Source of the DNA: Photobacterium chitinilyticum
GTDB taxonomy: Bacteria; Pseudomonadota; Gammaproteobacteria; Enterobacterales; Vibrionaceae
Direction: 5' to 3'
DNA: 24,000 nt
Assembly (NCBI RefSeq): GCF_004104355.1
Contig: NZ_RJLM01000002.1
Span: forward strand, 401,385 to 425,384
In this document: positions 647 to 19,358 of the stretch, in pieces
Position numbering within the stretch: position 1 is the stretch's first letter
Layout of the letters: every line of letters starts with the position of its first letter
Made by a program: the position numbers and the translations under genes
The notes under the pieces: model-generated
What the model was told of the DNA's origin: nothing
Seen by the model: the letters and a program-made list of their open reading frames with translations, nothing else
Database searches by the model: none

Positions 647-964
647 ATCAAAGCCCTTACAAAGAGTCTGTAACAAGGTAAACAATGATATAGCAGACGC
701 TATACCCAATCAAATTAAGGGCTTAATCTTAAGTGGTTGAAAATTATCACTAATTATGCAAGTTGAAATATCGGTGAATAAGTGTTGTGACTTGACTCAT
801 AAACGAGCAGGTAAAGGAGGCTTGAGCCGTATGCAGTGAAAGTTGCACGTACGGTTCTTATATCTCAACCAGCTAAAGAAAAGCACCGAGAAGCTATACA
901 ATACTCGACTTGCGAGGTCGCAGCATGGGATACTCATTCACAGGAAACCTTAAAGTAGCCACAT

Positions 965-2340: not shown

Positions 2341-3021
2341 CTAGTCATTTGATGTTAAACAATGCCATGTTACTGGACCTACGATACCATCGATGGCAGT
2401 ATTCTTTTGCTCTTGAAAGGCCATTACAGCAGACTTCGTTTGTTGCCCAAAGATGCCATCTTCAACTAGTGCTATCTGTTGTTTTTGGTTTAGAAGCTTT
2501 TGAAGTGCTAAAACGGCAGCCCCTCTTGATGTAAGTTTTAATGTCTCTTGGTAGATATTTGATGGATTTTCTGTGGGCTGAGCATTGGGAGCAAAGTCCA
2601 TTTCACCAAAATTGCTTAGGCCAAGTATTTTTTGGTAATCAAAAACCGGACAGTTTTTATCTGATACCTCACGATGGCCTCGAAATACAATTTGCTCCTC
2701 ATAAGCTTTATTGATTAGCTTGCATAAATCGATCAAAGATTCGAATTGCTTCTTAGTGAAGAGCTCCTTTTTTAATCCATGAAGACAAATAGCTATTGAG
2801 TTTTTGTTATGACCACTTTGTGCAGCAGGTATTTTCTCAAGATCTCGGCCTACATCTAGCTGTCCATTTTTTCGAATAAAATAGTGGTAGCCAACATCTT
2901 GCCAACCTCTCTCTAGGTGCCATTTTCTCATCGTTTCTACATTATCGTGTTGAGGGTAGTCACTTGCACTGCAATGGATGAACACTTTCTCTATATGGCG
3001 ATTGGGTTTTATGAATGTCAT
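2341..3021 (-). CDS. N-acetylmuramoyl-L-alanine amidase (T7-lysozyme/PGRP Amidase_2 type) with C-terminal PG_binding_1 domain (operon gene D)
   Basis: 226 aa. FIHCSAS...RGWQDVGYHYFIRKNG...GHNKNSIAICL...GHREVSDKNCPVFD aligns by eye with T7 lysozyme (FVHCSAT...GWLDVGYHFII...HHEVAPKACPSFD). The His/His/Cys zinc ligands and the Tyr/Lys are kept. The C-terminal RGAAVLALQKLL...EDGIFGQQTKSAVMAFQ...IDGIVGPVTW is a PG_binding_1 repeat. SD GGAGGA lies 6 nt upstream of the ATG. Confidence 0.92.
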   Translation of the reverse strand: MTFIKPNRHIEKVFIHCSASDYPQHDNVETMRKWHLERGWQDVGYHYFIRKNGQLDVGRDLEKIPAAQSGHNKNSIAICLHGLKKELFTKKQFESLIDLCKLINKAYEEQIVFRGHREVSDKNCPVFDYQKILGLSNFGEMDFAPNAQPTENPSNIYQETLKLTSRGAAVLALQKLLNQKQQIALVEDGIFGQQTKSAVMAFQEQKNTAIDGIVGPVTWHCLTSND

Positions 3022-3075
3022 AGGTAATCCTCCATTTTTAAAGAAATGAAATTGTCATCTTAGATAAATTACATT

Positions 3076-3546
3076 CTAAATCTGACTTAACTTAGAGCCC
3101 GTTTTTTTATCGAGAGTGCCATTTTTTATCTGGAGGTCATGCAATGTTTGAAATGCTTTAACCGCATTTTGAGTCTTCTTTCCAAAGTCACCGTCAATGA
3201 TAAGGCCTGATTTTAGGTGATGGTTGAGAGCGGCTTGAAGCTCTTCAACAACTTTACCATGGGCACCAAGGGAAAGTTCCCCTCTGAATACAAAACGTTT
3301 AGGTTTGTATTCATCAGAAAGGTGTATCCGTGTGGCTAGTTTTACTTCTATAGTCGATTGGCTTGATTGGTTGGTGTTCACTAATGCAACAAGCTTTGCT
3401 GTATTCTTGCTTATTGTTGTATTTAGCTTGATGCCAATATCGACGTCTCCTTTGAAGCCCATATTCCCACTCATACGAAGTACGTCAGAGATAGTGGAAT
3501 ATAGTATATTCCCAATATCTACGGCTTCTAACTCTGTTTTAGTCAT
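3076..3546 (-). CDS. Hypothetical protein: unassigned beta-rich N-terminal region plus C-terminal PG_binding_1 domain (operon gene C)
   Basis: ORF 3076..3561. I chose the ATG at 3546 because GGAGGA lies 7 nt upstream; the longer form starts at a TTG. The C-terminus GAHGKVVEELQAALN...IDGDFGKKTQNAVKAFQ...NGTLDKKTGSKL is a PG_binding_1 pattern. The start overlaps the gene B stop by 8 nt (ATGACTAA). Confidence 0.8.
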   Translation of the reverse strand: MTKTELEAVDIGNILYSTISDVLRMSGNMGFKGDVDIGIKLNTTISKNTAKLVALVNTNQSSQSTIEVKLATRIHLSDEYKPKRFVFRGELSLGAHGKVVEELQAALNHHLKSGLIIDGDFGKKTQNAVKAFQTLHDLQIKNGTLDKKTGSKLSQI

Positions 3547-3823
3547 TACCTGATCCTCCAATCACTTGGATATCTGTATTTATTGTTCCCTTCAAATTTA
3601 TAGATATCCCACCATCATTTGATTGTTTAAGTTTATCCGCTTCTAAATTACATTTGAGGTCGAGTTCAAAATTAAGGTCACCTATTATCAAAGCTCGGGC
3701 TCTGTCTTTTGCCACACTACTTGAACTTTCATTTACTCGGCTTATCGATTTTTGTAGAGATACTAATATTTGCTCTAAAGACTTGGGTTCTAAATTGTCC
3801 AATTTTTCATTTTCATTTTGCAT
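3539..3823 (-). CDS. Hypothetical 94-aa protein, predicted helix followed by amphipathic beta strands (operon gene B)
   Basis: ORF with AAGGA upstream of the ATG, 22 nt after the gene A stop, and translationally coupled to gene C. No TM segment and no signal peptide. No family recognised with confidence. Confidence 0.7.
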   Translation of the reverse strand: MQNENEKLDNLEPKSLEQILVSLQKSISRVNESSSSVAKDRARALIIGDLNFELDLKCNLEADKLKQSNDGGISINLKGTINTDIQVIGGSGND

Positions 3824-3845
3824 AGTGTTGTATCCTTATTTCGAC

Positions 3846-4361
3846 TCAGCTTTGAGCAACATTGGTATGTGGAATGTTGATCTTCCCCAATTTTTTTATC
3901 GCATTGTCAAGATCTCCGGTGTTATCTAAAGTATTGATTCCAAGCATATTTAGATAATCTTTTAGAGAGGTTTCAGTATCATTTGTAAGGTTGTAAATCG
4001 CTTGAGCCTGTAAAGTGCTTTCTGTAGTGGTTTCCTTGGTGAAGCCAAATGAGCCGCTTCCGTGAATCATTCCAATACCTAAGCCTAAAGATACGCCACC
4101 CTCGGTTCTCTCTATTGAGGCGATTCGCATTGAAAGTGAGAGGGATAGTTGGGCAGACATTTTCCATGATGGAGCTAGTTTGAGGTGTTCATTGATGATT
4201 TTCCTGCTGACATCCTCAGGCTCACCTTTAATAAGCTTTGTCAGGTCGGTTAACCATTTCATCCATATATATCGCTGTGTAGCGGATGCTTGAACAACGG
4301 CATCAGCAGGAGCGGTGAGGAGTGTGGAGATAATGTTTGAGAGGTTTTCAGTAGCCATCAT
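3846..4361 (-). CDS. Hypothetical 171-aa protein with Gly/Ser/Thr-rich alternating-polarity central segment (operon gene A)
   Basis: ORF preceded by AAGGAAAG; tandem ATGs at 4361 and 4358. The N-terminal LSNIISTLLTAPADAVVQASATQRYIW and central LAPSWKMSAQLSLSLSMRI pattern remind me of DUF2589-type proteins. That recollection is from memory and unverified. Confidence 0.75.
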   Translation of the reverse strand: MMATENLSNIISTLLTAPADAVVQASATQRYIWMKWLTDLTKLIKGEPEDVSRKIINEHLKLAPSWKMSAQLSLSLSMRIASIERTEGGVSLGLGIGMIHGSGSFGFTKETTTESTLQAQAIYNLTNDTETSLKDYLNMLGINTLDNTGDLDNAIKKLGKINIPHTNVAQS

Positions 4362-4667
4362 CTTTCCTTATCACAATAAGTTAATAGATAGGGCACGACC
4401 ATACAGCCTACTCACTGCCAATAAAGGCAGGTAAAGTCTGTCCGTTTTTTAACCGCTTAAAGCTAGTCAAGCACAGTTTGTTTAATTAAAATGTGATAGA
4501 TGCTAGATAATATGCTACTGGGTGATTATTGATTGACTCGATATCAAGATGAGAGTTAAGAGTAAAATGTCTGAAAAATATGCTACACAGGATTTCAAAA
4601 AACCAAGATTGCAAGCGTTCACTAACCCTGTGCGTCGCATGTAACATGCGGTTCGCTTCGAGGGTGA

Positions 4668-4844
4668 ACAATCAGCAAAGCGATTAGGAGTCGCCCAGCT
4701 CTTCCCTTCATAATCAATGGTGCATTGTACCTTGTAGGATATATTTCTGCTTGGGCGTACAAGGTAAATGCCAACGAGTCAGAGCGCGGTACTCTGCCAT
4801 TGATGTTAGGCTCCTTTATTAGTAGATACAAGGAAGCCTGGTGA
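4668..4844 (+). pseudogene. Orphan 3' end of a membrane-protein gene (no start codon), ending in a hairpin terminator
   Basis: Open frame of 58 codons with no Met: ...ALPFIINGALYLVGYISAWAYKVNANESERGTLPLMLGSFISRYKEAW*. It contains one TM-like helix. The stop codon (4842-4844) sits inside the hairpin at 4840-4854. Confidence 0.25.
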
Positions 4845-4870
4845 CCCTGTCACCTTTGTTTGTGCTTTTT
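4840..4870 (+). terminator. Candidate intrinsic terminator belonging to the orphan gene 3' end
   Basis: GGTGAC-CCT-GTCACC stem-loop (4840-4854) followed by TTTGTTTGTGCTTTTT. The stem is short (6 bp). Confidence 0.3.
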
Positions 4871-4889
4871 CGAACTGACACTAGCAGTG

Positions 4890-5415
4890 TTATTGGGCTG
4901 ATTGAATACTCAGAGCTCGATAATGTGTGAGGGTATTACCTTCAAAACATAAATTATTGCTGGCTAGGCTTTCAATAAAGGGTAAAGGTTCAAAGAGTTG
5001 CTCAATATGGAAGACGCCAGGTTCAAATGAAGATATGTGGAGCTCTTCAGCGACTTTGGCTGCGACTAATCCGGTAATGTGCCCTTCGCCATTTCCACTG
5101 ACAGAGCATTCATATAGGATGCCTGTATCCCGAGATCTTCCCGCTTCAACTTTGACAACATATTGGTCCGTTCCAAAAGGAAAAAGGGTTAACAATTTGA
5201 TCAGGTAGTCCTGTACTGCCCTGAACTTAAGGATCTTGCTTCCCCCCCATTCCTAATAAAATATTGATATCAGCGAAGTGCATATCACGAATCACCGTGT
5301 TGCAATGCTTAGCCAGAAGGTTCGACATACCTGGTGCCAAGCCGTCAATTTGAAAAAGTTGTTCTGCGTGACATTTCTCATGTCGGGCGTTATGTCTTTC
5401 AAAAATATAATATTG
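4890..5415 (-). pseudogene. Saccharopine-dehydrogenase-family oxidoreductase remnant (N-terminal Rossmann part missing, frameshifted)
   Basis: Two overlapping frames. The upstream frame (5415..5227) reads ...HAEQLFQIDGLAPGMSNLLAKHCNTVIRDMHFADINILLGMGGKQDP*; GLAPGxSNLLA is the hallmark after the NADP domain. The downstream frame (5252..4890) reads ...ITGLVAAKVAEELHISSFEPGVFHIEQLFEPLPFIESL..., a typical C-terminal region. The frames switch in a C7/G7 tract at 5242-5248. There is no start codon and no Rossmann domain upstream. Confidence 0.5.
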
Positions 5416-5480
5416 TTATTCACGCCGATATTCTTTGGGCATTGCATTGGGTGCATTCTTTCCCTGTCTTTTTTCGGGTG

Positions 5481-5492
5481 ATTGTTAACAGT
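5481..5492. promoter_or_regulatory. Candidate GntR-type operator, copy 1 (ATTGTTAACAGT)
   Basis: 11/12 match to the perfect palindrome at 5514-5525. The core TGTTAACA is self-complementary. Confidence 0.35.
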
Positions 5493-5513
5493 CTAGACTA
5501 AGGTCTAATACAT

Positions 5514-5525
5514 ATTGTTAACAAT
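5514..5525. promoter_or_regulatory. Candidate GntR-type operator, copy 2 (ATTGTTAACAAT, perfect 12-bp palindrome)
   Basis: Perfect palindrome just upstream of the candidate -35. It has the GT...AC half-site logic typical of GntR/FadR-family operators. Confidence 0.4.
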
Positions 5526-5529
5526 GCGC

Positions 5530-5558
5530 TTGATCGAAGCCGTTTTTAGGGCTAAATT
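5530..5558 (+). promoter_or_regulatory. Candidate sigma70 promoter of the prp locus (-35 TTGATC, 17-bp spacer, -10 TAAATT)
   Basis: Hexamers at 5530-5535 and 5553-5558, each 4/6 to consensus with optimal spacing, located between operator copies 2 and 3. Eye-matched only. Confidence 0.25.
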
Positions 5559-5575
5559 TGTTCACAAGTTAACCA

Positions 5576-5587
5576 ATTGTTGACAAT
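5576..5587. promoter_or_regulatory. Candidate GntR-type operator, copy 3 (ATTGTTGACAAT)
   Basis: 11/12 match to copy 2. It overlaps the regulator start codon region, downstream of the candidate promoter. Confidence 0.35.
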
Positions 5588-7256: not shown

Positions 7257-7497
7257 GTAATAACAATAATATAAACAAAAATAATAAAAAACAGATAACA
7301 ACAGTAATAATAAATAGGCAGGGAAGCCAGCTCGCTAATAAGCGGGAAGCCTAAGAAATTTAATACCTATAATAATATTACTAATAATTGACTATTTATT
7401 TAGTACTGATTCAGTCGCTGCCATTTCGAAGGGTACGAGTCTCACCTGTAGCTAGCGAAATCGCAATGGATTAACGTGAACAAATAAGGAGTCTGCT

Positions 7498-8673
7498 ATG
7501 ACTGCTATAGCCGTAGCTGATACGAACAAGGACAAGAAGCAAGACGATAAGAAATCATTGAGCGGTGCGGGTCTGCGCGGTCAAAGCGCCGGAACAACGT
7601 CACTGTGTACTGTTGGCCAAAGCGGGACGGGGTTGACTTACCGTGGTTATGACATCACTGATTTGGCGAACCATGCCGAATTTGAAGAAGTGGCGCACCT
7701 GTTACTCAAGGGAAAATTACCGACTCAAGCTGAACTGGATGGTTATAAGCAGGTACTGAAGAGTGCCCGTGGACTGCCACCATCACTGTGCCAGGTTCTG
7801 GAAGCGATTCCGGCTGACGCCCACCCGATGGATGTGATGCGTACCGGTTGTTCGATGCTAGGAAATCTCGATCAGGAACTCGACTTTTCCGAGCAGGACG
7901 AGAAAACCGATACTTTGCTTGCCATGCTTCCGGCCATTATCTGCTACTGGTATCGCTACAGTCATGATGGTGTTCGTATCGATACAGCTAATAGCAGTCA
8001 GGATAGTATTGGCGGCTATTTCCTCGAGATGCTGACAGGCAAAGCCCCGTCAGAACTGCACAAGCAGGTTATGCATTGCTCGCTGGTTCTGTATGCCGAA
8101 CATGAGTTCAATGCTTCGACGTTTACCGCTCGTGTTTGCGCTTCGACATTGTCTGATCTCCATTCTTGTATTACGGCTGCCATTGGTAGTTTGCGCGGTC
8201 CCTTGCATGGTGGTGCCAATGAAGCGGCCATGGCGATGATCGAGCAGTGGCAGACTGCGGATGAGGCTGAAGCTGGCATCATGGAGATGCTGGCGAACAA
8301 AGACAAAATTATGGGCTTCGGCCATGCAATTTACCGTGAATCTGATCCCCGAAATGCTTTAATTAAAGCATGGTCGGAAAAGCTCTCTGCCGATGTTGGC
8401 GATACCCATCTGTATGCAGTCTCTGAGCGTGTCGAGCAGGTGATGAAGCGGGAAAAGGGGCTGTTTTGTAACGCAGACTTTTTCCATGCCTCGGCCTATC
8501 ACTTCATGGGGATACCGACCAAGTTGTTTACCCCCATTTTTGTTATGAGCCGAGTCACAGGCTGGGCTGCCCATGTCTATGAGCAGCGTGCCAATAACCG
8601 GATTATCCGTCCGAGTGCCGATTACGAAGGACCGGAGCATCAGGATTGGCTGCCAATTGAAGGGCGCAGTTAA
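7498..8673 (+). CDS. prpC: 2-methylcitrate synthase
   Basis: 391 aa. Citrate synthase signature GFGHAIYRESDPR, and catalytic-region LHGGANEAA. AAGGAG lies 6 nt upstream of the ATG. Confidence 0.95.
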   Translation: MTAIAVADTNKDKKQDDKKSLSGAGLRGQSAGTTSLCTVGQSGTGLTYRGYDITDLANHAEFEEVAHLLLKGKLPTQAELDGYKQVLKSARGLPPSLCQVLEAIPADAHPMDVMRTGCSMLGNLDQELDFSEQDEKTDTLLAMLPAIICYWYRYSHDGVRIDTANSSQDSIGGYFLEMLTGKAPSELHKQVMHCSLVLYAEHEFNASTFTARVCASTLSDLHSCITAAIGSLRGPLHGGANEAAMAMIEQWQTADEAEAGIMEMLANKDKIMGFGHAIYRESDPRNALIKAWSEKLSADVGDTHLYAVSERVEQVMKREKGLFCNADFFHASAYHFMGIPTKLFTPIFVMSRVTGWAAHVYEQRANNRIIRPSADYEGPEHQDWLPIEGRS

Positions 8674-8785: not shown

Positions 8786-11371
8786 ATGAATATTAATACA
8801 AAATACCGTAAGCCTCTTGCAGGCAGCGGGCTTGATTTCTTTGATACCCGAGAAGCCGTAAACGATATATCTCCCGGTGCGTACGAGACGCTCCCCTATA
8901 CCTCGCGCGTGTTGGCCGAGCAGCTGGTCAGACGCTGCGATCCGGATTCATTAACCAATAGCCTGAAACAGATCATCGAACGTAAGCGCGACCTTGATTT
9001 TCCATGGTATCCGGCGCGTGTGGTGTGCCACGATATCCTGGGACAAACTGCTTTAGTCGATTTAGCAGGTCTGCGGGATGCCATTGCCGATCAGGGGGGC
9101 GACCCGGCGAAGGTCAATCCGGTTGTGGAAACGCAATTGATTGTCGACCACTCGTTGGCGGTTGAGCATGCTGGTTCTGATCCTGATGCATTTGATAAAA
9201 ACCGTGCGATAGAAGATCGCCGCAACGAAGACCGTTTCCACTTTATCGAGTGGTGTAAAACTGCATTTGAAAACGTCAGCGTGATCCCTGCCGGTAACGG
9301 CATCATGCACCAGATCAACCTGGAAAAAATGTCGCCAGTGGTTCAGGCCAAGAACGGTATCGCCTACCCCGATACGTGTGTCGGCACCGACAGCCACACA
9401 CCGCACGTTGATGCGCTGGGTGTGATCGCGATTGGAGTGGGTGGGCTTGAAGCGGAAACGGTAATGCTGGGTCGCCCATCCATGATGCGTCTGCCGGATA
9501 TTGTCGGTATAAAACTGACAGGTAAACGCCAGCCTGGCATTACTGCCACCGATATTGTCCTCGCTATCACCGAGTTTTTACGTAACGAGCGTGTGGTTTC
9601 ATCTTATCTGGAATTCTTTGGCGAAGGGGCGAAAGATCTCACCATCGGTGATCGCGCGACCATCTCCAATATGACGCCAGAATATGGTGCCACTGCGGGT
9701 ATGTTCTATATTGATGAGCAGACCATAAACTACCTCAAGTTGACAGGCCGAGATGAGCAGCAAGTCGAGTTGGTGGAACAATACGCCAAGCAAACGGGTT
9801 TGTGGGCAGACTCTCTGGAGAGTGCAGTTTACGAGCGAGTGCTGGAATTCGATTTATCGACAGTTTCCCGCAATATGGCAGGTCCGTCGAACCCTCATCG
9901 TCGCCTGCCGACTTCAGAGCTTGCTTCTCGCGGGATTTCTGGCGAATGGGAAGAGAAAGAGGGCGAACTGCCTGATGGTGCAGTGATTATTGCCGCCATC
10001 ACCTCTTGTACCAACACCAGTAACCCGCGCAACGTGATAGCTGCCGCTCTGTTGGCGAAGAAAGCCAATGAGCTGGGCTTGATCCGTAAACCCTGGGTGA
10101 AATCGTCGTTTGCCCCGGGGTCGAAAGTCGCCAAGTTGTATTTGGAAGAAGCAGGGCTACTGCCAGAGCTGGAAAAATTGGGCTTTGGTATTGTTGGTTA
10201 TGCCTGTACGACCTGTAATGGCATGAGTGGTGCTTTGGATCCCAAAATCCAGCAAGAGATCATCGATCGTGATCTATATACAACCGCAGTACTTTCCGGC
10301 AACCGTAACTTTGATGGTCGTATTCATCCCTATGCCAAGCAGGCGTTTTTGGCTTCACCGCCTCTGGTTGTTGCTTATGCGTTAGCGGGTTCTATTCGCT
10401 TTGATATCGAGCGTGATGCCCTTGGTACCGATAATCAGGGTAATCCCATTTACCTCAATGATTTGTGGCCAAGTGATGAAGAAATTGATGCGGTTGTCGG
10501 TAAGTGTGTTAGGCCGGAGCAGTTCAATCAGGTCTACATCCAGATGTTTAAGCTGAACGACGAAGCGCGCAACAGCAATCCGCTATACGACTGGCGTCCA
10601 ATGAGTACCTATATTCGCCGCCCACCTTATTGGGAAGGTGCTTTGGCGGGAGAACGAACGCTGTCGGGCATGCGTCCACTGGCGGTTCTGGGTGACAACA
10701 TTACGACCGACCATTTGTCGCCGTCTAATGCGATTCTGGCTTCCAGCGCAGCAGGGGAGTATCTGGCCAAAATGGAGGTGCCGGAAGAGGACTTTAACTC
10801 TTATGCAACGCACCGTGGTGATCATTTGACGGCGCAGCGTGCTACGTTCGCCAACCCTAAACTCTTCAACGAAATGGTCAAAGAGAATGGCGAAGTTGTG
10901 CAGGGGTCAATGGCTCGTATTGAGCCGGAAGGCAAGGTTACTCGCATGTGGGAAGCGATTGAAACCTATATGAACCGCAAACAGCCTTTGATTGTGGTGG
11001 CTGGCGCGGATTACGGTCAGGGCTCTTCCCGTGACTGGGCGGCGAAAGGAGTTCGCTTGGCCGGGGTAGAGGCTATTGCTGCTGAAGGCTTCGAGCGTAT
11101 TCACCGAACTAATTTGGTGGGGATGGGCATACTGCCACTGCAGTTTAAGCAGGGCACCAACCGTAATACCCTGGAGTTGGACGGTACCGAGCTATACGAC
11201 GTTATCGGTGTGATAACACCCGGTGCAGATTTAGCTTTGGTGATCACTCGCGCCAACGGTGAAAAAGTCGATGTGGCAGTCACCTGTCGTCTCGATACGG
11301 CTGATGAAGTGGCCGTTTATGACGCTGGCGGTGTGTTGCAGCGCTTTGCCCAAGACTTCTTGGCTCAGTAG
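8786..11371 (+). CDS. acnD: Fe/S-dependent 2-methylcitrate dehydratase, aconitase family (AcnD)
   Basis: 861 aa, aconitase A-like. Cluster-ligand motifs IAAITSCTNTSNP and GYACTTCNGMSG, plus VGTDSHT. It is immediately followed by prpF, the diagnostic pairing for AcnD. Confidence 0.95.
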   Translation: MNINTKYRKPLAGSGLDFFDTREAVNDISPGAYETLPYTSRVLAEQLVRRCDPDSLTNSLKQIIERKRDLDFPWYPARVVCHDILGQTALVDLAGLRDAIADQGGDPAKVNPVVETQLIVDHSLAVEHAGSDPDAFDKNRAIEDRRNEDRFHFIEWCKTAFENVSVIPAGNGIMHQINLEKMSPVVQAKNGIAYPDTCVGTDSHTPHVDALGVIAIGVGGLEAETVMLGRPSMMRLPDIVGIKLTGKRQPGITATDIVLAITEFLRNERVVSSYLEFFGEGAKDLTIGDRATISNMTPEYGATAGMFYIDEQTINYLKLTGRDEQQVELVEQYAKQTGLWADSLESAVYERVLEFDLSTVSRNMAGPSNPHRRLPTSELASRGISGEWEEKEGELPDGAVIIAAITSCTNTSNPRNVIAAALLAKKANELGLIRKPWVKSSFAPGSKVAKLYLEEAGLLPELEKLGFGIVGYACTTCNGMSGALDPKIQQEIIDRDLYTTAVLSGNRNFDGRIHPYAKQAFLASPPLVVAYALAGSIRFDIERDALGTDNQGNPIYLNDLWPSDEEIDAVVGKCVRPEQFNQVYIQMFKLNDEARNSNPLYDWRPMSTYIRRPPYWEGALAGERTLSGMRPLAVLGDNITTDHLSPSNAILASSAAGEYLAKMEVPEEDFNSYATHRGDHLTAQRATFANPKLFNEMVKENGEVVQGSMARIEPEGKVTRMWEAIETYMNRKQPLIVVAGADYGQGSSRDWAAKGVRLAGVEAIAAEGFERIHRTNLVGMGILPLQFKQGTNRNTLELDGTELYDVIGVITPGADLALVITRANGEKVDVAVTCRLDTADEVAVYDAGGVLQRFAQDFLAQ

Positions 11372-11383
11372 GGGGAGATGATA

Positions 11384-12598
11384 ATGACAAATTCAACGTT
11401 CCAGTTACGACCCCAGTCACAACCCCTGTCGCAAATCAAAGTGCCTGCCACCTATATGCGTGGCGGCACCAGCAAGGGTATGTTTTTTAGCTTGGAAGAT
11501 TTGCCGCCTGAAGCTCAGGTATCTGGCGGTGCTCGTAACAAGTTGCTGCTGAGAGTTATAGGCAGCCCGGATCCTTACGCCAAGCAGATAGACGGTATGG
11601 GCGGTGCAACCTCGAGTACCAGCAAAGCGGTTATCGTTTCCAAAAGTAGCAAGGCTGATCACGATGTCGATTATCTGTTTGGTCAGGTATCGATTGATAA
11701 GCCCTTTGTTGACTGGAGCGGTAACTGCGGAAACCTCTCTGCGGCGGTAGGCCCATTTGCTATTCAGGCTGGTCTGCTTCCTGAAGGACGTATTCCTGCC
11801 AACGGCATCGTCACGGTTCGTGTTTGGCAAGTTAATATCGAGAAAACTATCGTTGTACATGTGCCTATTGTGAATGGGGTTGTACAGGAAACCGGTGACT
11901 TTGAGCTCGACGGGGTGACATTCCCCGCCGCCGAGATTCAGGTGGACTTTATGGATCCGGCTGACGGCGATGGTTCGATGTTTCCGACCGGTAATCTGGT
12001 TGATGATCTTGAAGTGCCGGGTATCGGTACCTTCAATGCCACACTGATTAATGCGGGTATTCCGACTATTTTTGTCGATGCCGAGGCGATTGGTTACACC
12101 GGCACCGAGCTGCAGGATAACATCAATAATGATGATAAAGCATTGGCGATGTTCGAGACCATTCGTGCCTACGGGGCGTTGAAAATGGGGTTGATAACTT
12201 GCTTGGAAGAGGCCGAAACTCGCCAGCATACGCCGAAGATCGCTTTTGTTTCCAAGCCGAAAACCTATCAGTCTTCGAGTGGTAAAACCGTTGCTGGTAG
12301 TGAGGTGGATATTTTGGTTCGCGCCCTTTCGATGGGTAAGTTACATCACGCCATGATGGGGACGGCAGCCGTCGCGATTGCATCAGCTGCCTGTGTTCCT
12401 GGGACGCTGGTTAATTTGGCGGCTGGTGGCGGCGAAAAAGAATCGGTGACGTTCGGGCATCCGTCCGGAACGTTAAAAGTGGGCGCGAAAGCCAAACAGG
12501 CAAACCAAGGCTGGGTAGTCGAGAAAGCCATTATGAGCCGCAGCGCTCGCATTTTGATGGAGGGCTTTGTACGTGTTCCCTCTAATGTCTTTGAATAA
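11384..12598 (+). CDS. prpF: 2-methylaconitate cis-trans isomerase PrpF
   Basis: PrpF family motif YMRGGTSKG near the N-terminus, ~400 aa, downstream of acnD. The ORF opens at ATG 11378, which abuts the GGGGGAG SD. ATG 11384 has better spacing. Confidence 0.9.
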   Translation: MTNSTFQLRPQSQPLSQIKVPATYMRGGTSKGMFFSLEDLPPEAQVSGGARNKLLLRVIGSPDPYAKQIDGMGGATSSTSKAVIVSKSSKADHDVDYLFGQVSIDKPFVDWSGNCGNLSAAVGPFAIQAGLLPEGRIPANGIVTVRVWQVNIEKTIVVHVPIVNGVVQETGDFELDGVTFPAAEIQVDFMDPADGDGSMFPTGNLVDDLEVPGIGTFNATLINAGIPTIFVDAEAIGYTGTELQDNINNDDKALAMFETIRAYGALKMGLITCLEEAETRQHTPKIAFVSKPKTYQSSSGKTVAGSEVDILVRALSMGKLHHAMMGTAAVAIASAACVPGTLVNLAAGGGEKESVTFGHPSGTLKVGAKAKQANQGWVVEKAIMSRSARILMEGFVRVPSNVFE

Positions 12599-12642: not shown

Positions 12643-14517
12643 ATGTCTGCATATCAGAAACAATATCAGTTGGCACAAACTGCGCCGGAAGAATTTTGGA
12701 AACAACAGGCAGAAGATATTGCCTGGTTCAAATTTCCTCAAACTATCCTCAGCCAGGATGAACAGGGTATCGAGCGATGGTTTGCCGATGGTGAACTCAA
12801 TACCGCTTACCTGGCCTTGGATCACCATGTTGAACAGGGCAGAGGTGATCAAACCGCACTGATTTATGACTCCCCTGTCACGGGTCAGAAAGCCCGCTAT
12901 ACCTATCGTGTTCTGCGTGATCAGGTCGCCAAGACTGCTGGCATGCTAGCAAACCTGGGCGTTACCAAAGGGGATCGGGTAGTCATTTATATGCCGATGA
13001 TCCCGGAAGCGGCGATGGCAATGTTGGCCTGTGCTCGTCTGGGGGCCATTCACTCGGTCGTCTTTGGCGGCTTTGCGCCGAATGAGCTGGCGGTGCGTAT
13101 TGAAGATGCCGAACCGAAAGTGATCATGACGGCCAGCTGTGGTGTTGAGATCAACAAGGTGCTTCCCTATAAGCCGCTGGTTGATCAGGCCATTATGGAC
13201 AGCCGTTGGAAACCTGATCATGTGGTGGTTCATCAGCGTAAACAATGCCCGGCAGATCTGAATCAGGAACGCGACAAGGATTGGTCAGCATTATTGCGTA
13301 CAGCCAAAGCGCATGACTGTGTGTCGGTGAAGGCAACCGATCCGCTCTACATTCTTTATACCTCCGGAACGACGGGCAAACCCAAGGGGGTGGTGCGCGA
13401 TAATGGCGGTCATGCCGTTGCGATGAAGTACAGCATGGGAACAATCTATGATGTCGAGCCGGGGGATGTGTACTGGGCGGCATCAGATGTCGGGTGGGTG
13501 GTCGGGCACTCCTATATTGTCTATGCGCCGTTAATTCATGGCTGTACCACGATTATGTATGAAGGCAAACCTGTACGCACCCCTGATCCGGGCGCTTTCT
13601 GGCGAGTTTGTCAGGAGTATGGAGTCAAGGCTCTGTTCTCGGCACCGACGGCTTTCCGAGCGATAAAAAAAGAAGATCCAGAAGGTGGGCACCTCAAGCA
13701 GTACCCGATGCCCTCACTGAAAACCATTTTTATGGCTGGTGAGCGCTTGGATCCGCCGACACTGGAATGGGTCGAAAGTAAGACCGGGCGTCCGGTGGTC
13801 GATCATTGGTGGCAGACCGAGACGGGCTGGGCCATTGCCGGAAACCCGATTGGCTTGGAAAACTTTGCTGTCAAGCCGGGCTCGGCGACCAAACCTATTC
13901 CCGGTTATCTGGTGGAAGTGCTTAACGAAATCGGTGAGCCACAAAAAGCCAGCGAGCAGGGTTACATTGCGATTAAGCGACCATTGCCACCGGGTTGTCT
14001 GCCCACTGTTTGGCGTAACCACGATCGTTTTGAATCAGGCTATCTTAGTCAGTTCCCGGGTTACTACGTTTCTGGTGACGGTGGTTATATTGATGAAGAC
14101 GGTTACCTGTTCGTGATGGGACGTATTGATGATGTGATCAACGTTGCCGGTCACCGTCTGTCTACTGGTGAGATGGAGGAGGTTGTCGGTGGTCATGAAG
14201 CCGTTGCAGAGTGTGCGGTAATCGGTATTCATGATGATCTCAAGGGCCAGTTACCATTGGGGCTGGTGGTGCTAAAAGACGGATACGTATCTGAAGGTGG
14301 TGCCATAGAGAATGAACTGTTGCAAAAAGTGCGGCAGGAAATTGGTGCTGTAGCCTGCTTCAAACGAGCATTGATTGTCGATCGTCTGCCAAAAACACGA
14401 TCTGGTAAGATCTTGCGCCGGGTGATCCGCCAGATAGCCGATGGCGAGCAATATGTCGTGCCATCTACAATCGATGATCCAACCAGCCTGCAGGAGATTG
14501 AGCGGGTACTGGAATAA
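12643..14517 (+). CDS. prpE: Propionate--CoA ligase (propionyl-CoA synthetase)
   Basis: AMP-binding signature ILYTSGTTGKPKGVV, acetyl/propionyl-CoA synthetase-like N-terminus (YQKQYQLAQTAPEEFW), and C-terminal PKTRSGKILRR. The ORF opens at 12616, but GGAGG (12631-12635) sits 7 nt before ATG 12643. The resulting 624 aa fits PrpE length. Confidence 0.93.
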   Translation: MSAYQKQYQLAQTAPEEFWKQQAEDIAWFKFPQTILSQDEQGIERWFADGELNTAYLALDHHVEQGRGDQTALIYDSPVTGQKARYTYRVLRDQVAKTAGMLANLGVTKGDRVVIYMPMIPEAAMAMLACARLGAIHSVVFGGFAPNELAVRIEDAEPKVIMTASCGVEINKVLPYKPLVDQAIMDSRWKPDHVVVHQRKQCPADLNQERDKDWSALLRTAKAHDCVSVKATDPLYILYTSGTTGKPKGVVRDNGGHAVAMKYSMGTIYDVEPGDVYWAASDVGWVVGHSYIVYAPLIHGCTTIMYEGKPVRTPDPGAFWRVCQEYGVKALFSAPTAFRAIKKEDPEGGHLKQYPMPSLKTIFMAGERLDPPTLEWVESKTGRPVVDHWWQTETGWAIAGNPIGLENFAVKPGSATKPIPGYLVEVLNEIGEPQKASEQGYIAIKRPLPPGCLPTVWRNHDRFESGYLSQFPGYYVSGDGGYIDEDGYLFVMGRIDDVINVAGHRLSTGEMEEVVGGHEAVAECAVIGIHDDLKGQLPLGLVVLKDGYVSEGGAIENELLQKVRQEIGAVACFKRALIVDRLPKTRSGKILRRVIRQIADGEQYVVPSTIDDPTSLQEIERVLE

Positions 14518-14549
14518 GTATTTCTAAAGTTAAAAAAGACTCCCAGAGC

Positions 14550-14589
14550 AAACAGCTTTTGCATCGCAAGATGCAACGGCTGTTTTTTT
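14550..14589 (+). terminator. Intrinsic terminator of the prp operon
   Basis: AAACAGC..TTGCATC-GCAA-GATGCAA..GCTGTTT two-tier stem with a GNRA tetraloop, followed by a T7 run, 33 nt after the prpE stop. Confidence 0.85.
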
Positions 14590-14741
14590 ATGGGGATAGT
14601 TAATGTCCAGGTTAACCGATGATCCTCTGGTCACAACAGCGCTGCTAGTGGCGGTGAAATATAATTCCAATATCCACAGAGTTTTGGCTCTAAACTTGCT
14701 TATGAGCTTGTTTAGAGTGGACTAACTCAAGGAGACATTGG

Positions 14742-14954
14742 ATGTCGATTAACGTAACGGTACTGTGTCTTGCATTGGCGGCTGTAGCGTTTGACTATTT
14801 TGCGAATAGGGATGGTCTGAATAGCAAGCCACAATCGCAATTTCAAGAGATTAGCGATAGTGATTCAGTGCAGCAGAAAGGTGAGGGTAAGCCGGTCAAG
14901 ATCGAATTGCCGCCTCGTGGTGTTGTGCTGGGAGCCGTATATGTCGGCCAATGA
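14742..14954 (+). CDS. Small hypothetical protein (70 aa) with N-terminal hydrophobic signal/anchor
   Basis: AAGGAG lies 7-8 nt upstream of the ATG. The N-terminal INVTVLCLALAAVAFDYF is hydrophobic. The gene has its own strong terminator downstream. Confidence 0.55.
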   Translation: MSINVTVLCLALAAVAFDYFANRDGLNSKPQSQFQEISDSDSVQQKGEGKPVKIELPPRGVVLGAVYVGQ

Positions 14955-14987
14955 ATGGGATTGTTTTATCTTCCTGATAAAAAAGGG

Positions 14988-15019
14988 AAATCCCCGCGAC
15001 ACTTGTCGAGGGGATTTTT
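14988..15019 (+). terminator. Intrinsic terminator
   Basis: AAATCCCC-G-CGAC-ACTT-GTCG-A-GGGGATTT stem-loop followed by a T run. Confidence 0.8.
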
Positions 15020-15356
15020 GCTGATGCAGATAAGATCTAATCGGCTTGATCGTATTTCTTTAGAAATGAGTCTCTTGTTTTTTTCAGAGCGGATTGGGAT
15101 TGATATTTCAATTTTTGCCTAACCCGTTTTGTGTTCTTATCCATAGTAATAGTTCAATACACTCCCTGTATGCTGGCTAACTGGTGTAGATTATTAATAG
15201 CAGCAAAAGGTAGTCATTACATGCTAATTACGGCTTGTAATAGTGATGTGCATTCCAGATTTTGAGCCTCGGGAATAGGCATTGTTATAAGTCACTGAAA
15301 TGGTAAAAACAAGATGATGACAATTATTAGCTACAGCCTAGCGAGTAATGCAGTCT

Positions 15357-16163
15357 CTAAGGGGAGGTATTTCTGGTTTGCTGTTCATTGTTAAGGCTGT
15401 CACGTAAATCAATCAGCGGTTGTTGGCTGATTTCAATAATGCTGCGAACGGGTCTATCGAGTTCGATGATCAGGGTAAGCACCAATGAGAAGGACATTGC
15501 GAAGGGAAGAGCAGCAACAAGCAGTCGGCTTTTTCCCTGCGCGCTGACCTGAACACCATTGAGCGCTATGGTCAGAAAGGTCAGAAGCGTTAGCGTTATC
15601 CAGATACTGAGCGGGATTCGCCCTCTCAGTCCGTAGTTTACCCGTTCGCTATGGATGTCAAAGACAATATTTAGTGAATCAATATACAGCATGCTTTGGA
15701 TTGGCGGCGAGCTATGGTGGGCATTGACGACGATTTGCCACAAATCTTGCTGGATTTGCTCACTTTCAGTAATTACTTGATTAACAATTTTTTTTGCCTG
15801 ACTTTGATCTTCTACGACACGAATATTGACGTACTTGACTAGCCGCTCTCGACTCTGGCTCCTATAGGGTTCATCCAGCAGCCCCGTTCGCAGTATTGCT
15901 GTACCTACCGCATTGGCTTCTTTTAATACCAACTGCTTTCTGATGTCATTTTTTGAGGCGGCCATGCTGAATGTAATAGCCAGAATAAAGGCGAGAAGAC
16001 TGGCAAGCCCGGTTGCCATCGGGCTGATGGCTTTGCTGATCTGGCTAGAGGCGAAACGACGGGTAAGGCGAAAGCCAAACTCAAACATGATGCTAATTGA
16101 ACAAAAAACCAGAGCCAGAATGAGAAAAATAGACAATGAATCAATGTAGGTGTCTTGAAACAT
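15357..16163 (-). CDS. Hypothetical inner-membrane protein (2 N-terminal + 2 C-terminal TM helices around a soluble helical core; DUF4239-like layout)
   Basis: 268-aa ORF with AAGG 6 nt upstream of the ATG. TM segments: SLSIFLILALVFCSISIMFEF, LASLLAFILAITFSMAA, IWITLTLLTFLTIAL, LLVAALPFAMSFSLVLTLII. The family label is from memory of the architecture. Confidence 0.75.
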   Translation of the reverse strand: MFQDTYIDSLSIFLILALVFCSISIMFEFGFRLTRRFASSQISKAISPMATGLASLLAFILAITFSMAASKNDIRKQLVLKEANAVGTAILRTGLLDEPYRSQSRERLVKYVNIRVVEDQSQAKKIVNQVITESEQIQQDLWQIVVNAHHSSPPIQSMLYIDSLNIVFDIHSERVNYGLRGRIPLSIWITLTLLTFLTIALNGVQVSAQGKSRLLVAALPFAMSFSLVLTLIIELDRPVRSIIEISQQPLIDLRDSLNNEQQTRNTSP

Positions 16164-16381
16164 AAATAGCCTTGTACCTTTGTTTTTATTGGTAGCGCTT
16201 CAACGCTTTTGGTTGTCAAAAGTATAGCGGCTTACAACGAGAGGGAGTATGAACAGGAATAAAATAGAATATCAGAATTAGCATCGACAGGAATGAACGT
16301 GCATAAAATGGCATTCATGCCTACTTCAATTGGGCATTATCTTCTATGGTTTGTGTAGTGTCTTTGTCGAAGGAGAACTCC

Positions 16382-16813
16382 ATGGGATATAAGCATGTGC
16401 TGCTGGCATTGAATCTGGATGAAAATGCCGAGTATTTGATACTCAAGGCGGCGGAGATGGCCCGCATCTACCATGCGCTGTTCAGCGTGATCCATATTGA
16501 CCCTGATCTAGGTCACCTAGAGCAAGGCGTCAGGGAGTTTGATGCTGTCAATATTGATGATAGCGAGCATTACGAATCGGTAGCAAAGATGAAGCGGCTT
16601 CTCAAAGGGACCAATTACCCGCTGTATAAGCATTTGTTCTATACCGGCTATATTGAAGATCAGATGGAAAATGCAATAAATCAGTATGATGTCGATTTAT
16701 TGGTCTTGGGCCACCATCAGTCCAATATCTTCCGTCAGCTGATGTTATCGCTTAGCGAACCTTTGGTCAGGCAAATGCCTTGCGATATTCAGTTACTGAA
16801 GCTAGAGAAATAG
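16382..16813 (+). CDS. Universal stress protein (UspA family)
   Basis: YKHVLLALNL start, DLLVLGHH motif, and ~143 aa are typical of single-domain Usp. GAAGGAG lies 6 nt before ATG 16382. The ORF opens further upstream at 16346 without an SD. Confidence 0.85.
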   Translation: MGYKHVLLALNLDENAEYLILKAAEMARIYHALFSVIHIDPDLGHLEQGVREFDAVNIDDSEHYESVAKMKRLLKGTNYPLYKHLFYTGYIEDQMENAINQYDVDLLVLGHHQSNIFRQLMLSLSEPLVRQMPCDIQLLKLEK

Positions 16814-17909: not shown

Positions 17910-18165
17910 TATTGTGATCCTAATTGCTTTATGGTTGCGAGTAAATGAGCTGTGAACTCTAACAAGGCCATATCTGTCGTTCCTGACAGTACAGTATGGG
18001 CAATGATTAGAGAAAGAATAGGAAATAAATATTGATAACAAACAGGTAAGCTAAGTTGGCATACTATTTTTTTAAAATGCTATAGCAATCATACAAATAG
18101 ACACGCTCGTGTGTGAATATACCATAATGTAAATATTGGAAGTTGAAATAGAGTGAGTGAAAGGA

Positions 18166-18525
18166 ATGAAGCCGGGAGAGACAGGTCTAAAACGTGTTTT
18201 TGATGCCACTATCTATTCTATTCAGGGGCTTAAAGCTGCTTGGAAATATGAAGAAGCATTTCGAATGGAGATTGTGTTGCTGGTTTTGCTCACTACCCTC
18301 ACTTTCTTTTTGCCTGTGACTAAGTTTGAGCAGTTGGCAATGATTGCCAGCCTCTTTTTGGTAGTGATTGTCGAGCTGCTGAATTCGGCCGTTGAAGCCG
18401 TTGTTGATCGCATTGGTTCTGACTATCACGAGTTGTCCGGAAGAGCAAAAGATATTGGTTCTGCGGCTGTTTTTGTGTCAATGATCTTTGTCGGGATCAC
18501 GTGGTTTGTGGTGCTGTTTGTATAG
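18166..18525 (+). CDS. dgkA: Diacylglycerol kinase (prokaryotic DgkA)
   Basis: Aligns end to end by eye with E. coli DgkA: GLKAAWKYEEAFRME vs GLRAAWINEAAFRQE. The stretch VELLNSAVEAVVDRIGSDYHELSGRAKDIGSAAV is nearly identical. An alternative GTG start lies at 18157. Confidence 0.92.
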   Translation: MKPGETGLKRVFDATIYSIQGLKAAWKYEEAFRMEIVLLVLLTTLTFFLPVTKFEQLAMIASLFLVVIVELLNSAVEAVVDRIGSDYHELSGRAKDIGSAAVFVSMIFVGITWFVVLFV

Positions 18526-18680
18526 CAGGTTATACCTAACCAGGCTCGACAGTGAAATGTTATGGTGTCGAGCCATATGGTAACAAAGAGATGAAATAAG
18601 CTATTATTAATAAAGTAAAATGCTATTTTTATTATTAAAAATCAAATACATTAATTTGTTCGTTATTAACGCTTAAATCG

Positions 18681-18881
18681 CTATGAACGAGAAATCGTCC
18701 AGCTTTCGGAACAGTCTTTACATTCCATATCTGCATCGGTAATACTTTTTGATTTAATATAAGTATTAGATGATTCACATTTAGGGCATTGTGTCCGTGA
18801 TGGTGGACAGTTAACATCGACGCAGTGGTTATCTTTGTCCGTCGATTTTATCATCGGTTGTTTGCAGTCTGGACATAACAT
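18681..18881 (-). CDS. Hypothetical 66-aa double zinc-ribbon protein
   Basis: Eight Cys arranged as CxxC-13-CxxxxC-6-CxxC-18-CxxC. AAGGAG lies 9 nt upstream of the ATG. It sits in an AT-rich islet. Confidence 0.55.
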   Translation of the reverse strand: MLCPDCKQPMIKSTDKDNHCVDVNCPPSRTQCPKCESSNTYIKSKSITDADMECKDCSESWTISRS

Positions 18882-19358
18882 TTAATAACACTCCTTTTAT
18901 TAAATTTAAGACATTGCTTTTAATAATGCTGACATTTAATATCATTGCAATTGATAAAAGACTATAGCCGCCGAATGCTTATTATATATTCATTGATCAC
19001 AGTCATTATTTATTTCTTTAAGAGAAAATCCTGTTATTCGCTGTTTCTTGTTGATCTTTAATATGTAATTACTATCCATACATGATTTTTCATTAGTCTT
19101 GGTTGTTTTTAAGTTTTTTGTCTCATCAAGAACGTAATGTGTGTGCTTGTTATAAATCCATACGAGTGCAGTTGCATCCTCAAGTGCTTTTTTGTGCTGG
19201 GCGCATAACAACTTGTAGCATAGTGGGCTTAATGTAGATCAATAAAAGTCTCGGTTATTAATTCATTTAATAATAAGAAGTTTACATATTCCGCCTACAA
19301 ATACAGTATTCGATTTTTGTGCGAAAAGGGCAGAGGGTAAGTACTCTCATGCTGGACT

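Follow-up and report, generated by a model that had tools for sequence, protein, structure and literature searches.

A proposed autolysis or lysis cassette of Photobacterium chitinilyticum built on three families of hypothetical proteins

The 24,000-nucleotide stretch of the Photobacterium chitinilyticum genome analysed here (hereafter the window) carries a four-gene operon on its minus strand, in which three small genes, A, B and C, precede a gene for a T7-lysozyme-type amidase, D. We read it as an autolysis or lysis cassette built on three new protein families, whose newness we judge by their annotation as 'hypothetical', and its conserved unit is the trio A-B-C', in which C' is the N-terminal module of gene C, and not the quartet. 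The reading we favour, to which we assign a probability of about 45%, is that the trio would form a non-holin, probably β-barrel, membrane lesion giving endolysin-type enzymes access to the wall, and would act as a regulated autolysis module. Endolysins that lie in the cytoplasm are believed to reach the wall only through a transmembrane (TM) holin, the pinholin/signal-arrest-release (SAR) route or Sec export. We suggest that the trio supplies the lesion normally supplied by a holin because it is the constant partner of interchangeable lysins without signal peptides, because most lysin-linked loci have no holin, and because A is predicted to form a long hairpin. The trio is found in defence and toxin islands, and this setting suggests a role in abortive infection and/or lysis-dependent toxin release.

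The operon and its conserved trio

The genes, their domains and the leader of the operon are as follows (aa, amino acids; ORF, open reading frame).

Gene A, 3846-4361, minus strand: ORF of 171 aa, or 170 aa from a second ATG at 4358 (the NCBI call is 170 aa)
Gene B, 3539-3823, minus strand: ORF of 94 aa
Gene C, 3076-3546, minus strand: ORF comprising the C' module and a PG_binding_1 domain
C' module, 3292-3546, minus strand: N-terminal ~85 aa of gene C, third conserved component of the trio
PG_binding_1 domain of gene C, 3094-3258, minus strand: aa 97-151, Pfam PF01471
Gene D, 2341-3021, minus strand: ORF of 226 aa, with Amidase_2 at 2647-3003 and PG_binding_1 at 2362-2526
Conserved 5' leader, 4362-4450, minus strand: putative promoter of the operon, recognised by DNA similarity among cassettes

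A preliminary description, made from the sequence alone, had placed these four genes in one operon, and its coordinates, Shine-Dalgarno-like sites and junctions agree with the sequence. A and B are separated by 22 nt and C and D by 54 nt, and B and C overlap by 8 nt (ATGACTAA), with the start codon of C inside the end of B. Direct reading places AAGGAAAG ahead of A, AAGGA ahead of B and GGAGGA ahead of both C and D; gene A starts with tandem ATGs, and gene C has an additional upstream TTG at 3561. Orthologues of A to D in three other loci show 45-75% protein identity at saturated synonymous sites (nonsynonymous divergence dN 0.17-0.49, synonymous divergence dS undefined), and because protein identity has been kept despite this saturation, all four ORFs are taken to be real genes under purifying selection.

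The A family was surveyed with an exhaustive HMMER scan of 1.84 billion representatives and the B family with a profile search of a 5.8-billion-protein database. These yielded 65 representative clusters for A (56 of them below 1e-10) and 135 for B, all of the latter 'hypothetical' and without a Pfam domain; word-indexed searches gave just five A and three B relatives. One candidate A relative, P0070 (6,874 aa, with nine matches to the A tip), was rejected as spurious because it is a eukaryotic plakin-repeat protein that the broad family hidden Markov model (HMM) does not recover. Locus contexts were gathered through exact-protein look-ups, a species-representative genome scan, a metagenome scan and plasmid BLAST, and were annotated with local alignment-derived HMMs; the locus scan used a narrower B alignment, the broad alignments having no sufficiently conserved stretch, and many metagenome contigs were too short to show neighbours.

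In every locus with enough sequence, amounting to ~26 distinct loci, the gene order A, B, C' is constant, with A of 147-187 aa, B of 88-150 aa and C' of 66-130 aa, and B and C' usually overlap by 4-8 nt. The hosts belong to at least eight phyla, all of them diderm lineages: Vibrionaceae, Alteromonadales, Burkholderiales, Rhodocyclaceae, Acidobacteriota, Desulfobacterota, Planctomycetota, Verrucomicrobiota, Gemmatimonadota and Bacteroidota. Named hosts include Photobacterium, Thalassotalea, three Ideonella species, a Rhodocyclaceae metagenome-assembled genome, Sulfidibacter (Acidobacteriota) and Desulfohalobiaceae, together with Phycisphaeraceae/Planctomycetota, Brocadiia, Verrucomicrobiota, Longimicrobium, Bacteroidia and Flavobacteriaceae. 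Wherever a relative of the trio has been given a name, that name is 'hypothetical'.

Stand-alone C' genes, mostly of 66-95 aa and without a PG-binding domain, are the form found in L004, L008, L011, L013, L015-L018 and L020-L037, and besides the window the fusion of C' to PG_binding_1 is seen only in L001, L002, L003 and L007. The gene-neighbourhood survey that the preliminary description had proposed for the homologues of A, B and C thus upheld the linkage of the trio, but not that of the quartet, since the amidase and the PG_binding_1 domain on C are limited to the Photobacterium-like clade. A C' homologue in L039 (~571-1130) has a ~100-aa C-terminal extension bearing a PG_binding_1-like motif, DGIYGPQTEFAF, on which the local PG-binding HMM gave no score; judging from the motif, a second, independent fusion is possible there.

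Wall hydrolases beside the trio

Although the amidase itself is confined to one clade, wall hydrolases of other families adjoin the trio elsewhere.

Amidase_2 with PG_binding_1 (Pfam): in the window, in P. gaetbulicola (L001, L002) and on one metagenome contig (L003); 54 nt after C in the window
GH19 with PG_binding_1: in three Ideonella species, 21 nt upstream of A; matches the phrog_181 endolysin at 3e-56
DUF5675: in Thalassotalea, 14 nt after C'; phrog_1501
VanY/Peptidase_M15_4, followed by a GTA_holin_3TM holin: in metagenome locus L031, 33 nt after C'
VanY/Peptidase_M15_4: in metagenome locus L034, overlapping C'

Four unrelated hydrolase families therefore adjoin the trio in four independent lineages, on either side of it and at distances from a 10-nt overlap to a 54-nt gap, and on inspection of their N termini none of the adjoining hydrolases has a signal peptide. 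Interchangeable lysins around a constant partner are the signature of holin-endolysin cassettes. As a rough estimate, with such enzymes making up ~1% of neighbouring genes, this arrangement would arise by chance among ~15 lineages with a probability of ~1e-5. DUF5675 has been described as a C82-like candidate lysin domain (bioRxiv 10.64898/2026.04.11.717860, 2026 preprint). L007 has the fused C' without D, and a weak, sub-threshold CHAP-like ORF lies upstream; tblastn found no remnants of D in L007 or L004. A holin is absent from 8-9 of the 9-10 lysin-linked loci, the ranges reflecting this CHAP-like ORF.

The Ideonella variant may have a fifth component: just upstream of the GH19 gene, I. oryzae and I. 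dechloratans each encode a protein of ~168 aa that has a signal peptide but belongs to no Pfam family (equal in length, unaligned), and a hand-called ORF of doubtful frame occupies the same place in I. sp. B508-1 (loci L018 7095-7601, L026 1624-2247 and L041 4558-5064).

There is nothing unusual about gene D as a member of the T7-lysozyme/Amidase_2 family, or about either PG_binding_1 domain of the operon. Pfam scores are well above the cut-offs (Amidase_2, PF01510, 53.6 bits against 26, aa 7-125; PG_binding_1, PF01471, 51.2 bits against 23, aa 166-220), and D matches the phrog_822 amidase at 6e-41 and T7 lysozyme (1ARO/1LBA) at E = 4e-25. T7 lysozyme holds its Zn with a His/His/Cys set of ligands and uses Tyr and Lys in catalysis. 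His16 (HCSA), Tyr45 (GYH), His115 (GHxEV), Lys121 and Cys123 of D align to these residues, so that D shares with the wider family (PGRP, AmpD) both ligands and catalytic pair, and its earlier assignment as a T7-lysozyme/PGRP-type Zn amidase with intact ligands and a PG_binding_1 domain stands. D has no signal peptide, SAR segment or TM segment: its N terminus (MTFIKPNRHIEKVF) is polar, and the maximum 19-residue Kyte-Doolittle mean of 0.73 falls in the PG-binding domain. A SAR endolysin was ruled out for D, as the weakly hydrophobic N-terminal segment of that class is missing.

Many phage endolysins share this architecture with a C-terminal PG_binding_1 domain, and relatives of D are present in 1452 phage genomes. 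The closest full-length one, from Aeromonas phage HJ05 (45% identity), sits in a classical cassette, with multi-TM holins on one side and a TM i-spanin and lipobox o-spanin on the other, whereas D is chromosomal and is partnered by the trio instead of holin and spanins.

Given these phage affinities, the cassette could be a decayed lysis fragment of a phage, tailocin or gene transfer agent, in which A to C are unrelated phage proteins that hitch-hike with an endolysin and have no function of their own. The PHROG matches that mark D, GH19, M15 and DUF5675 as phage-type enzymes would fit this, as would the low GC content, the decayed flanks and a sub-threshold tape-measure match of A described below. 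We consider it very improbable, however. Neither A nor B was found in IMG/VR (2.9 million contigs) and A was not found in the 50,697 phage genomes of INPHARED; neither protein has a PHROG match; purifying selection acts on the trio, whose synteny extends across phyla; and no phage structural genes were seen in the window or the contig-annotated loci, many neighbours in scan-derived loci having been read by eye or having no family match. The preliminary description had named two outcomes that would speak against its own reading. The first, that A to C are phage virion or lysis proteins within an intact prophage, is not borne out by these searches. The second, a lack of conserved linkage to an amidase, is literally the case outside the Photobacterium-like clade, but is overturned in spirit by the linkage to wall hydrolases generally.

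Predicted properties of the trio and the proposed lesion

A, B and C' were searched in Pfam, NCBIfam, PHROG, PADLOC-DB v2 and PDB. None of the three has a match in Pfam, PADLOC or PHROGs, and PDB sequence searches with their profiles were empty, in agreement with the earlier view of A and B as unassignable and of C as a PG_binding_1 domain (aa 97-151; E = 5.4e-10, 39.7 bits against a cut-off of 23) behind a module that could not be placed. The DUF2589-like and trypco2-like patterns suggested in the preliminary description did not survive HMM tests: DUF2589 (PF11655) matched 0 of 52 A-family members at E ≤ 0.1, window A giving nothing at E ≤ 1, and Trypco2/Pepco (PF19631) matched 0 of nine B and 0 of nine C' members at E ≤ 10, touching a single A member of the 52 below threshold (E = 0.006). 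The whole of Pfam gave nothing at E ≤ 10 for nine diverse B members and nine C' members. The only NCBIfam match, of A to a tape-measure model (E = 5e-5, 22.4 bits, below the cut-off of 28.8), was set aside as compositional because it covers the Gly-rich region.

B opens with a helix-type signature, L-x-x-V-L-x-A-L-Q-K-S-[FIL]-S-R-V, followed by alternating β-type segments and an acidic C-terminal tail of variable length, and C' is marked by the motifs V-D-h-x-h-T-F and K-L-A-T-R-I. A paralogous relationship between B and C', or of either with the A hairpin, was rejected, hhalign probabilities being below 3% with shallow and deep profiles alike; the same strand-loop-strand motifs recur in the weak hhalign pairings of A, B and C', and kinship based on them is speculation.

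An AlphaFold2 model of A built on a 52-sequence family alignment reaches a mean predicted local distance difference test score (pLDDT) of 80.3 and a predicted template modelling score (pTM) of 0.68; it supersedes an earlier model from five sequences (pLDDT 55), an all-helical artefact. The model contains helices at 2-44 and 49-61, a single long β-hairpin with strands at 66-86 and 109-131, and short helices at 133-139 and 148-160, so that the preliminary description of three β-rich proteins needs correcting for A, which begins with ~60 aa of helix. Family columns show strict hydrophobic/polar alternation at 66-83 and hydrophobic/Gly alternation at 90-107, with G103 in 98% of members, and each arm of the modelled hairpin would span ~30 residues if the tip prolongs the strands. 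In β-barrel pore formers, the stems that insert into the membrane typically show this combination of alternation and Gly.

None of the four proteins has a TM helix, and A, B and C' have neither a signal peptide nor, on reading of their N termini, a lipobox; maximum 19-residue Kyte-Doolittle means are 1.14 for A, 0.61 for B and 0.72 for C. A hidden holin was considered and rejected: the only TM-like mini-ORF on the cassette strand, at 4515-4640 (41 aa), has no counterpart in orthologous cassettes, and a search of five lysin-linked cassettes for a small TM ORF that they share found none. Two A relatives (P0034 in L012, 592-1413, and P0058) carry a C-terminal Ig-like domain (ASH/DUF1573/HYDIN-VesB). 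This domain on A and PG_binding_1 on C' are normally extracytoplasmic, yet both are fused to proteins without a signal peptide.

From these features we infer the following course of events, from the trigger and the pore to the parts played by B and C' and the purpose served. The operon would be silent or latent, with the leader and its inverted repeat providing transcriptional control; on a trigger, A would oligomerise and its amphipathic, Gly-rich hairpins would form a β-barrel-type pore or lesion. B and C', made in a fixed ratio through translational coupling, would either restrain A until the trigger or co-assemble with it. Through the lesion, signal-less D and the PG-binding part of C would get to the murein, where D would cleave MurNAc-L-Ala bonds and lyse the cell. 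At bare-trio loci death would come from membrane permeabilisation alone, a mode of killing recently shown for Pepco and EACC1 (bioRxiv 10.1101/2025.11.14.688446). The purpose may be altruistic death (abortive infection) and/or release of cargo such as toxins, following the logic of type 10 secretion.

Several observations weigh against this proposal. About half of the well-flanked loci have no adjoining hydrolase (L008, L013, L017, L022, L023, L025, L032, L033, L037), and the lysin-linked locus L031 also bears a canonical GTA_holin_3TM holin; if that holin is needed there, the trio may do other work, such as outer-membrane disruption or regulation. The operon encodes no sensor, protease or obvious trigger, and PADLOC-DB v2, a collection of known anti-phage defence systems, returned no match to A, B, C or D at E ≤ 1. 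In the model of A, the hairpin tip (87-110), Gly-rich over 87-108, has low confidence (pLDDT below 50), and the hairpin might simply bury its hydrophobic face against the helices, as a soluble protein would. The structure search that the preliminary description had recommended revealed no known fold for A: Foldseek gave nothing significant in PDB (best E 0.14, TM score ≤ 0.22) or in BFVD (best E ~0.02, TM scores below 0.3 except one of 0.36). In favour of the lesion, the non-significant PDB matches, all confined to the hairpin, are mostly pore-state protomers (iota Ib, anthrax PA, VCC, CDTb, β-toxin, aerolysin, lysenin) and also include ring barrels (flagellar LP/MS rings).

One may postulate instead that the trio is cargo: A, with B and C' as chaperone, immunity protein or co-toxin, would be a signal-less pore-forming, bacteriocin-like toxin released when the adjoining hydrolase, in the manner of a colicin lysis gene or a T10SS (type 10 secretion system) lysin, lyses the producer, and the PG-binding and Ig-like fusions would act outside that cell. 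The pore-toxin-like hairpin of A and the absence of signal peptides from all three proteins suit such a role, tripartite pore-toxin operons do exist (AhlABC, SmhABC, Hbl, Nhe), and in L031 and L034 the trio lies beside RHS toxins, where the M15 lysin and a true holin could carry out release themselves. Toxin release by T10SS lysis is established (PMC10847048). This scenario nevertheless seems unlikely to us: many trios have no lysin or holin nearby (L008, L022, L025 and others), and a signal-less toxin would be trapped there; in the Photobacterium, Ideonella and Thalassotalea cassettes the only possible holin for the endolysin is the trio itself; and the trio has no receptor-binding or translocation domain, which would be needed to cross the outer membrane of a target.

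A further possibility is that the trio assists lysis at the envelope, either as a spanin or disruptin analogue at the outer membrane or as a regulator, scaffold or inhibitor of the hydrolase, the inner membrane being crossed by other means. The restriction of the family to diderm lineages would accord with this, as would the fact that β-barrels are an outer-membrane architecture, the true holin of L031, and the PG_binding_1 domain on C, which would put C' in the periplasm; the trio also takes the place that holins and spanins hold around the HJ05 endolysin. Here too the odds appear low. The trio has no TM anchor or lipobox of the kind found in i-, o- and u-spanins; nearly all lysin-linked loci, as counted above, offer no alternative holin; stand-alone trios would have no lysis to assist; and the amidase regulators EnvC, NlpD and ActS have LytM domains or signal peptides that are absent here. 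What probability remains falls to something else.

Returning to the trio as a membrane lesion, we compared the cassette with known systems. In its apparent working it is like a holin-endolysin(-spanin) cassette or a T10SS module (Yersinia entomophaga LC, Serratia ChiWXYZ, Salmonella ChiA/TtsA), the domesticated form of such cassettes, in which a holin and a peptidoglycan hydrolase serve to release a linked cargo, lysis-dependent release being the principle of type 10 secretion (PMC10847048, PMC10109510): a signal-less phage-type hydrolase is tightly linked to small partners, these partners stay constant while the hydrolase beside them changes family, the cassette lies in the chromosome outside any prophage, and some trio loci lie beside RHS toxins or chitin-related genes. 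By sequence, however, it lacks the defining features of holins and spanins, because the small proteins next to the endolysin have no TM helix and no holin match in Pfam or PHROG, and A to C have neither the TM anchor nor the lipobox Cys of spanins. The trio also differs in having no dual-start motif and no spanin family similarity, in comprising three partners in fixed order, in being without a hydrolase at about half of its loci and in not being found in phage genomes. As for T10SS membership, the window has a hydrolase, no holin and nothing comparable to T10SS cargo flanking the cassette; possible cargo elsewhere is circumstantial (CBM_5_12 in L001, GH20 in L003, RHS in L031 and L034).

A resemblance in concept links the trio to Pepco (Trypco1/Trypco2) and EACC1 (Kaur et al., eLife 2020, PMC7159879), small soluble β-rich proteins that act as pore-forming death effectors in protease-gated defence systems (bioRxiv 10.1101/2025.11.14.688446, Evans et al.). 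Like them, the trio proteins are small, soluble and TM-less, with an oligomeric β-barrel pore as the output, predicted for the trio and proven for the effectors, and a location in conflict islands; PG-binding and FGE domains likewise occur in the neighbourhood. B, to judge by its sequence pattern, even has a similar layout (~90-117 aa, N-terminal amphipathic helix, β segments, charged and disordered C-terminal tail). In contrast to them, the trio fails the Trypco2 HMM test, comprises three different proteins instead of one and has no adjoining protease, STAND or vWA partner, although Pepco systems are defined by a trypsin-like or cysteine protease that cleaves the C-terminal tail; no protease gene was found beside the trio in the window and the loci with Pfam-annotated or tested neighbours, many neighbours in scan-derived loci having only been read by eye or having no family match. 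Neither Pepco nor EACC1 has been described as coupled to wall hydrolases.

Likeness to β-barrel pore-forming toxins (aerolysin, α-haemolysin/VCC, anthrax PA/iota Ib/CDTb) is restricted to the one long amphipathic hairpin with a Gly-rich tip predicted for A, which has no significant structural or sequence match to them (E ≥ 0.14, TM score ≤ 0.22), measures just 171 aa, rests on a helical base and lacks receptor-binding domains and a secretion signal. The tripartite α-pore-forming toxins of the ClyA fold (AhlABC, SmhABC, Hbl, Nhe) share the three-gene operon and are believed to assemble stepwise into one pore from helical bodies with a hydrophobic β-tongue, but their components are ~350-400 aa, secreted and mutually homologous, whereas those of the trio (170, 90 and 80 aa) show no detectable relation to one another and have no sequence or fold match to them.

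A broader proposal, which we hold to be rather less probable than the lesion itself, is that A-B-C' represents a new phylum-spanning class of TM-less, three-component and probably β-barrel membrane-breaching machinery in diderms, a 'holin analogue' used alone as a suicide effector or paired with any endolysin to make autonomous lysis cassettes for abortive infection or toxin release. Were the lesion reading correct, a TM-less three-protein partner beside four unrelated endolysin families would constitute a new solution to endolysin access and would add a new family of small bacterial pore-formers to gasdermins, Pepco and EACC1; three 'hypothetical' families would gain names and a testable function, and a compact lysis switch would become available for programmed lysis or protein release. 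Even if the trio turned out to be a toxin for release or to disrupt the outer membrane, it would still be a new component of bacterial lysis and secretion biology.

Neighbourhoods, control and sequence setting

The genes around the trio are typical of variable conflict islands. They include AbiEi/AbiEii (L026, L037), a RES toxin gene in one context, RHS toxins with a Tox-REase-9 tip (L031, L034), a Dcm gene assigned by eye from its sequence, and FGE-sulfatase and ParE/PhD genes. The preliminary description had expected a conflict, autolysis or lysis-dependent secretion module; this general idea fits the AbiE, RES, TIR, PD-(D/E)xK, RHS, insertion-sequence and Dcm neighbours, although the amidase quartet that it took as the unit did not hold up. 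In L004 (GCA_028280025), an IS3-family element (rve and HTH_Tnp_1, 11117-12441) lies 34 nt after a stand-alone C', and beyond it, at 13306-16781, are a PDDEXK_13/REase-ARP gene and a gene for a 617-aa TIR_2 protein, with the look of a defence island. In L017 (Phycisphaeraceae), a protein with an FGE-sulfatase domain and a signal peptide is encoded directly upstream of A (7377-8198), and a 227-aa N-terminally anchored protein is encoded downstream of the trio (9703-10386); FGE domains often serve as sensor modules in conflict systems of the Pepco type.

The two P. gaetbulicola strains (L001, L002) diverge from position 12030, directly downstream of the amidase, where one has Peptidase_M1 and the other has genes for a 216-aa protein, a DUF6538 fragment and an AEP-TOTE primase/helicase with the look of a mobile element; because the strains differ at this point, the cassette borders an integration hot spot. 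Chitin-related genes lie near the cassette in two loci, encoding a CBM_5_12 protein in L001 (7529-9712) and a GH20 chitobiase in L003 (10150-12737). A chitin link of the kind seen in the ChiWXYZ T10SS was rejected, as it is not conserved and such genes are absent beside the window cassette and elsewhere.

DNA similarity between the window and the L001, L002, L003 and L007 cassettes ends at the stop codon of D and reaches ~90 nt upstream of A, beyond which the DNA is unrelated between loci. This leader holds the inverted repeat CTGCC-N6-GGCAG (CTGCC-TTTATT-GGCAG, 4415-4430, minus strand), followed by GGCTGTATGGTC; an alignment shows the repeat ahead of A in P. gaetbulicola and in one metagenome locus, and part of it in a second metagenome locus. 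We infer a candidate regulator (operator) site and a σ70-like promoter here; a σ54 or σ70 reading of the leader received no backing from a consensus scan, in which promoter-like sites were fewer than in shuffled sequence. Because the ~90 nt are conserved between otherwise unrelated flanks and contain the repeat, control of the operon in the Photobacterium clade is probably transcriptional.

The AT-rich character noted earlier for the cassette is evident, with a GC content of 0.34-0.39 across 2501-4000 against 0.50-0.55 in the neighbouring prp-type (propionate-operon-like) genes, within a broader low-GC zone from ~500 to ~5500 of the window. The flanks at 1454-2340 and 4362-5576 hold short ORFs only; in the 1.2-kb stretch upstream of the operon, a 101-aa ORF (4890-5195, minus strand) has no Pfam match and is possibly a gene fragment. 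The 24-kb window contains no integrase, capsid, tail, holin or spanin gene, as expected for the non-prophage island first described, and its remaining genes are housekeeping ones (maltose-acetyltransferase-like, YcxB, bestrophin-like, Usp, GNAT, DagK, methyl-accepting chemotaxis protein (MCP) and acyl-ligase/acyltransferase).

At the edge of the low-GC zone, positions 822-863 (plus strand) match the Rfam family Intron_gpII (RF00029) with 47.7 bits (gathering score 40), under a small model of domains V/VI only; as no reverse-transcriptase or maturase ORF lies nearby, they probably represent the remains of a group II intron. GC content also falls to 0.33-0.34 in another strongly AT-rich stretch at 18526-19358, a gap of ~830 bp that separates dgkA (18157-18525) from a Cache/MCP chemoreceptor gene (19359-21395).

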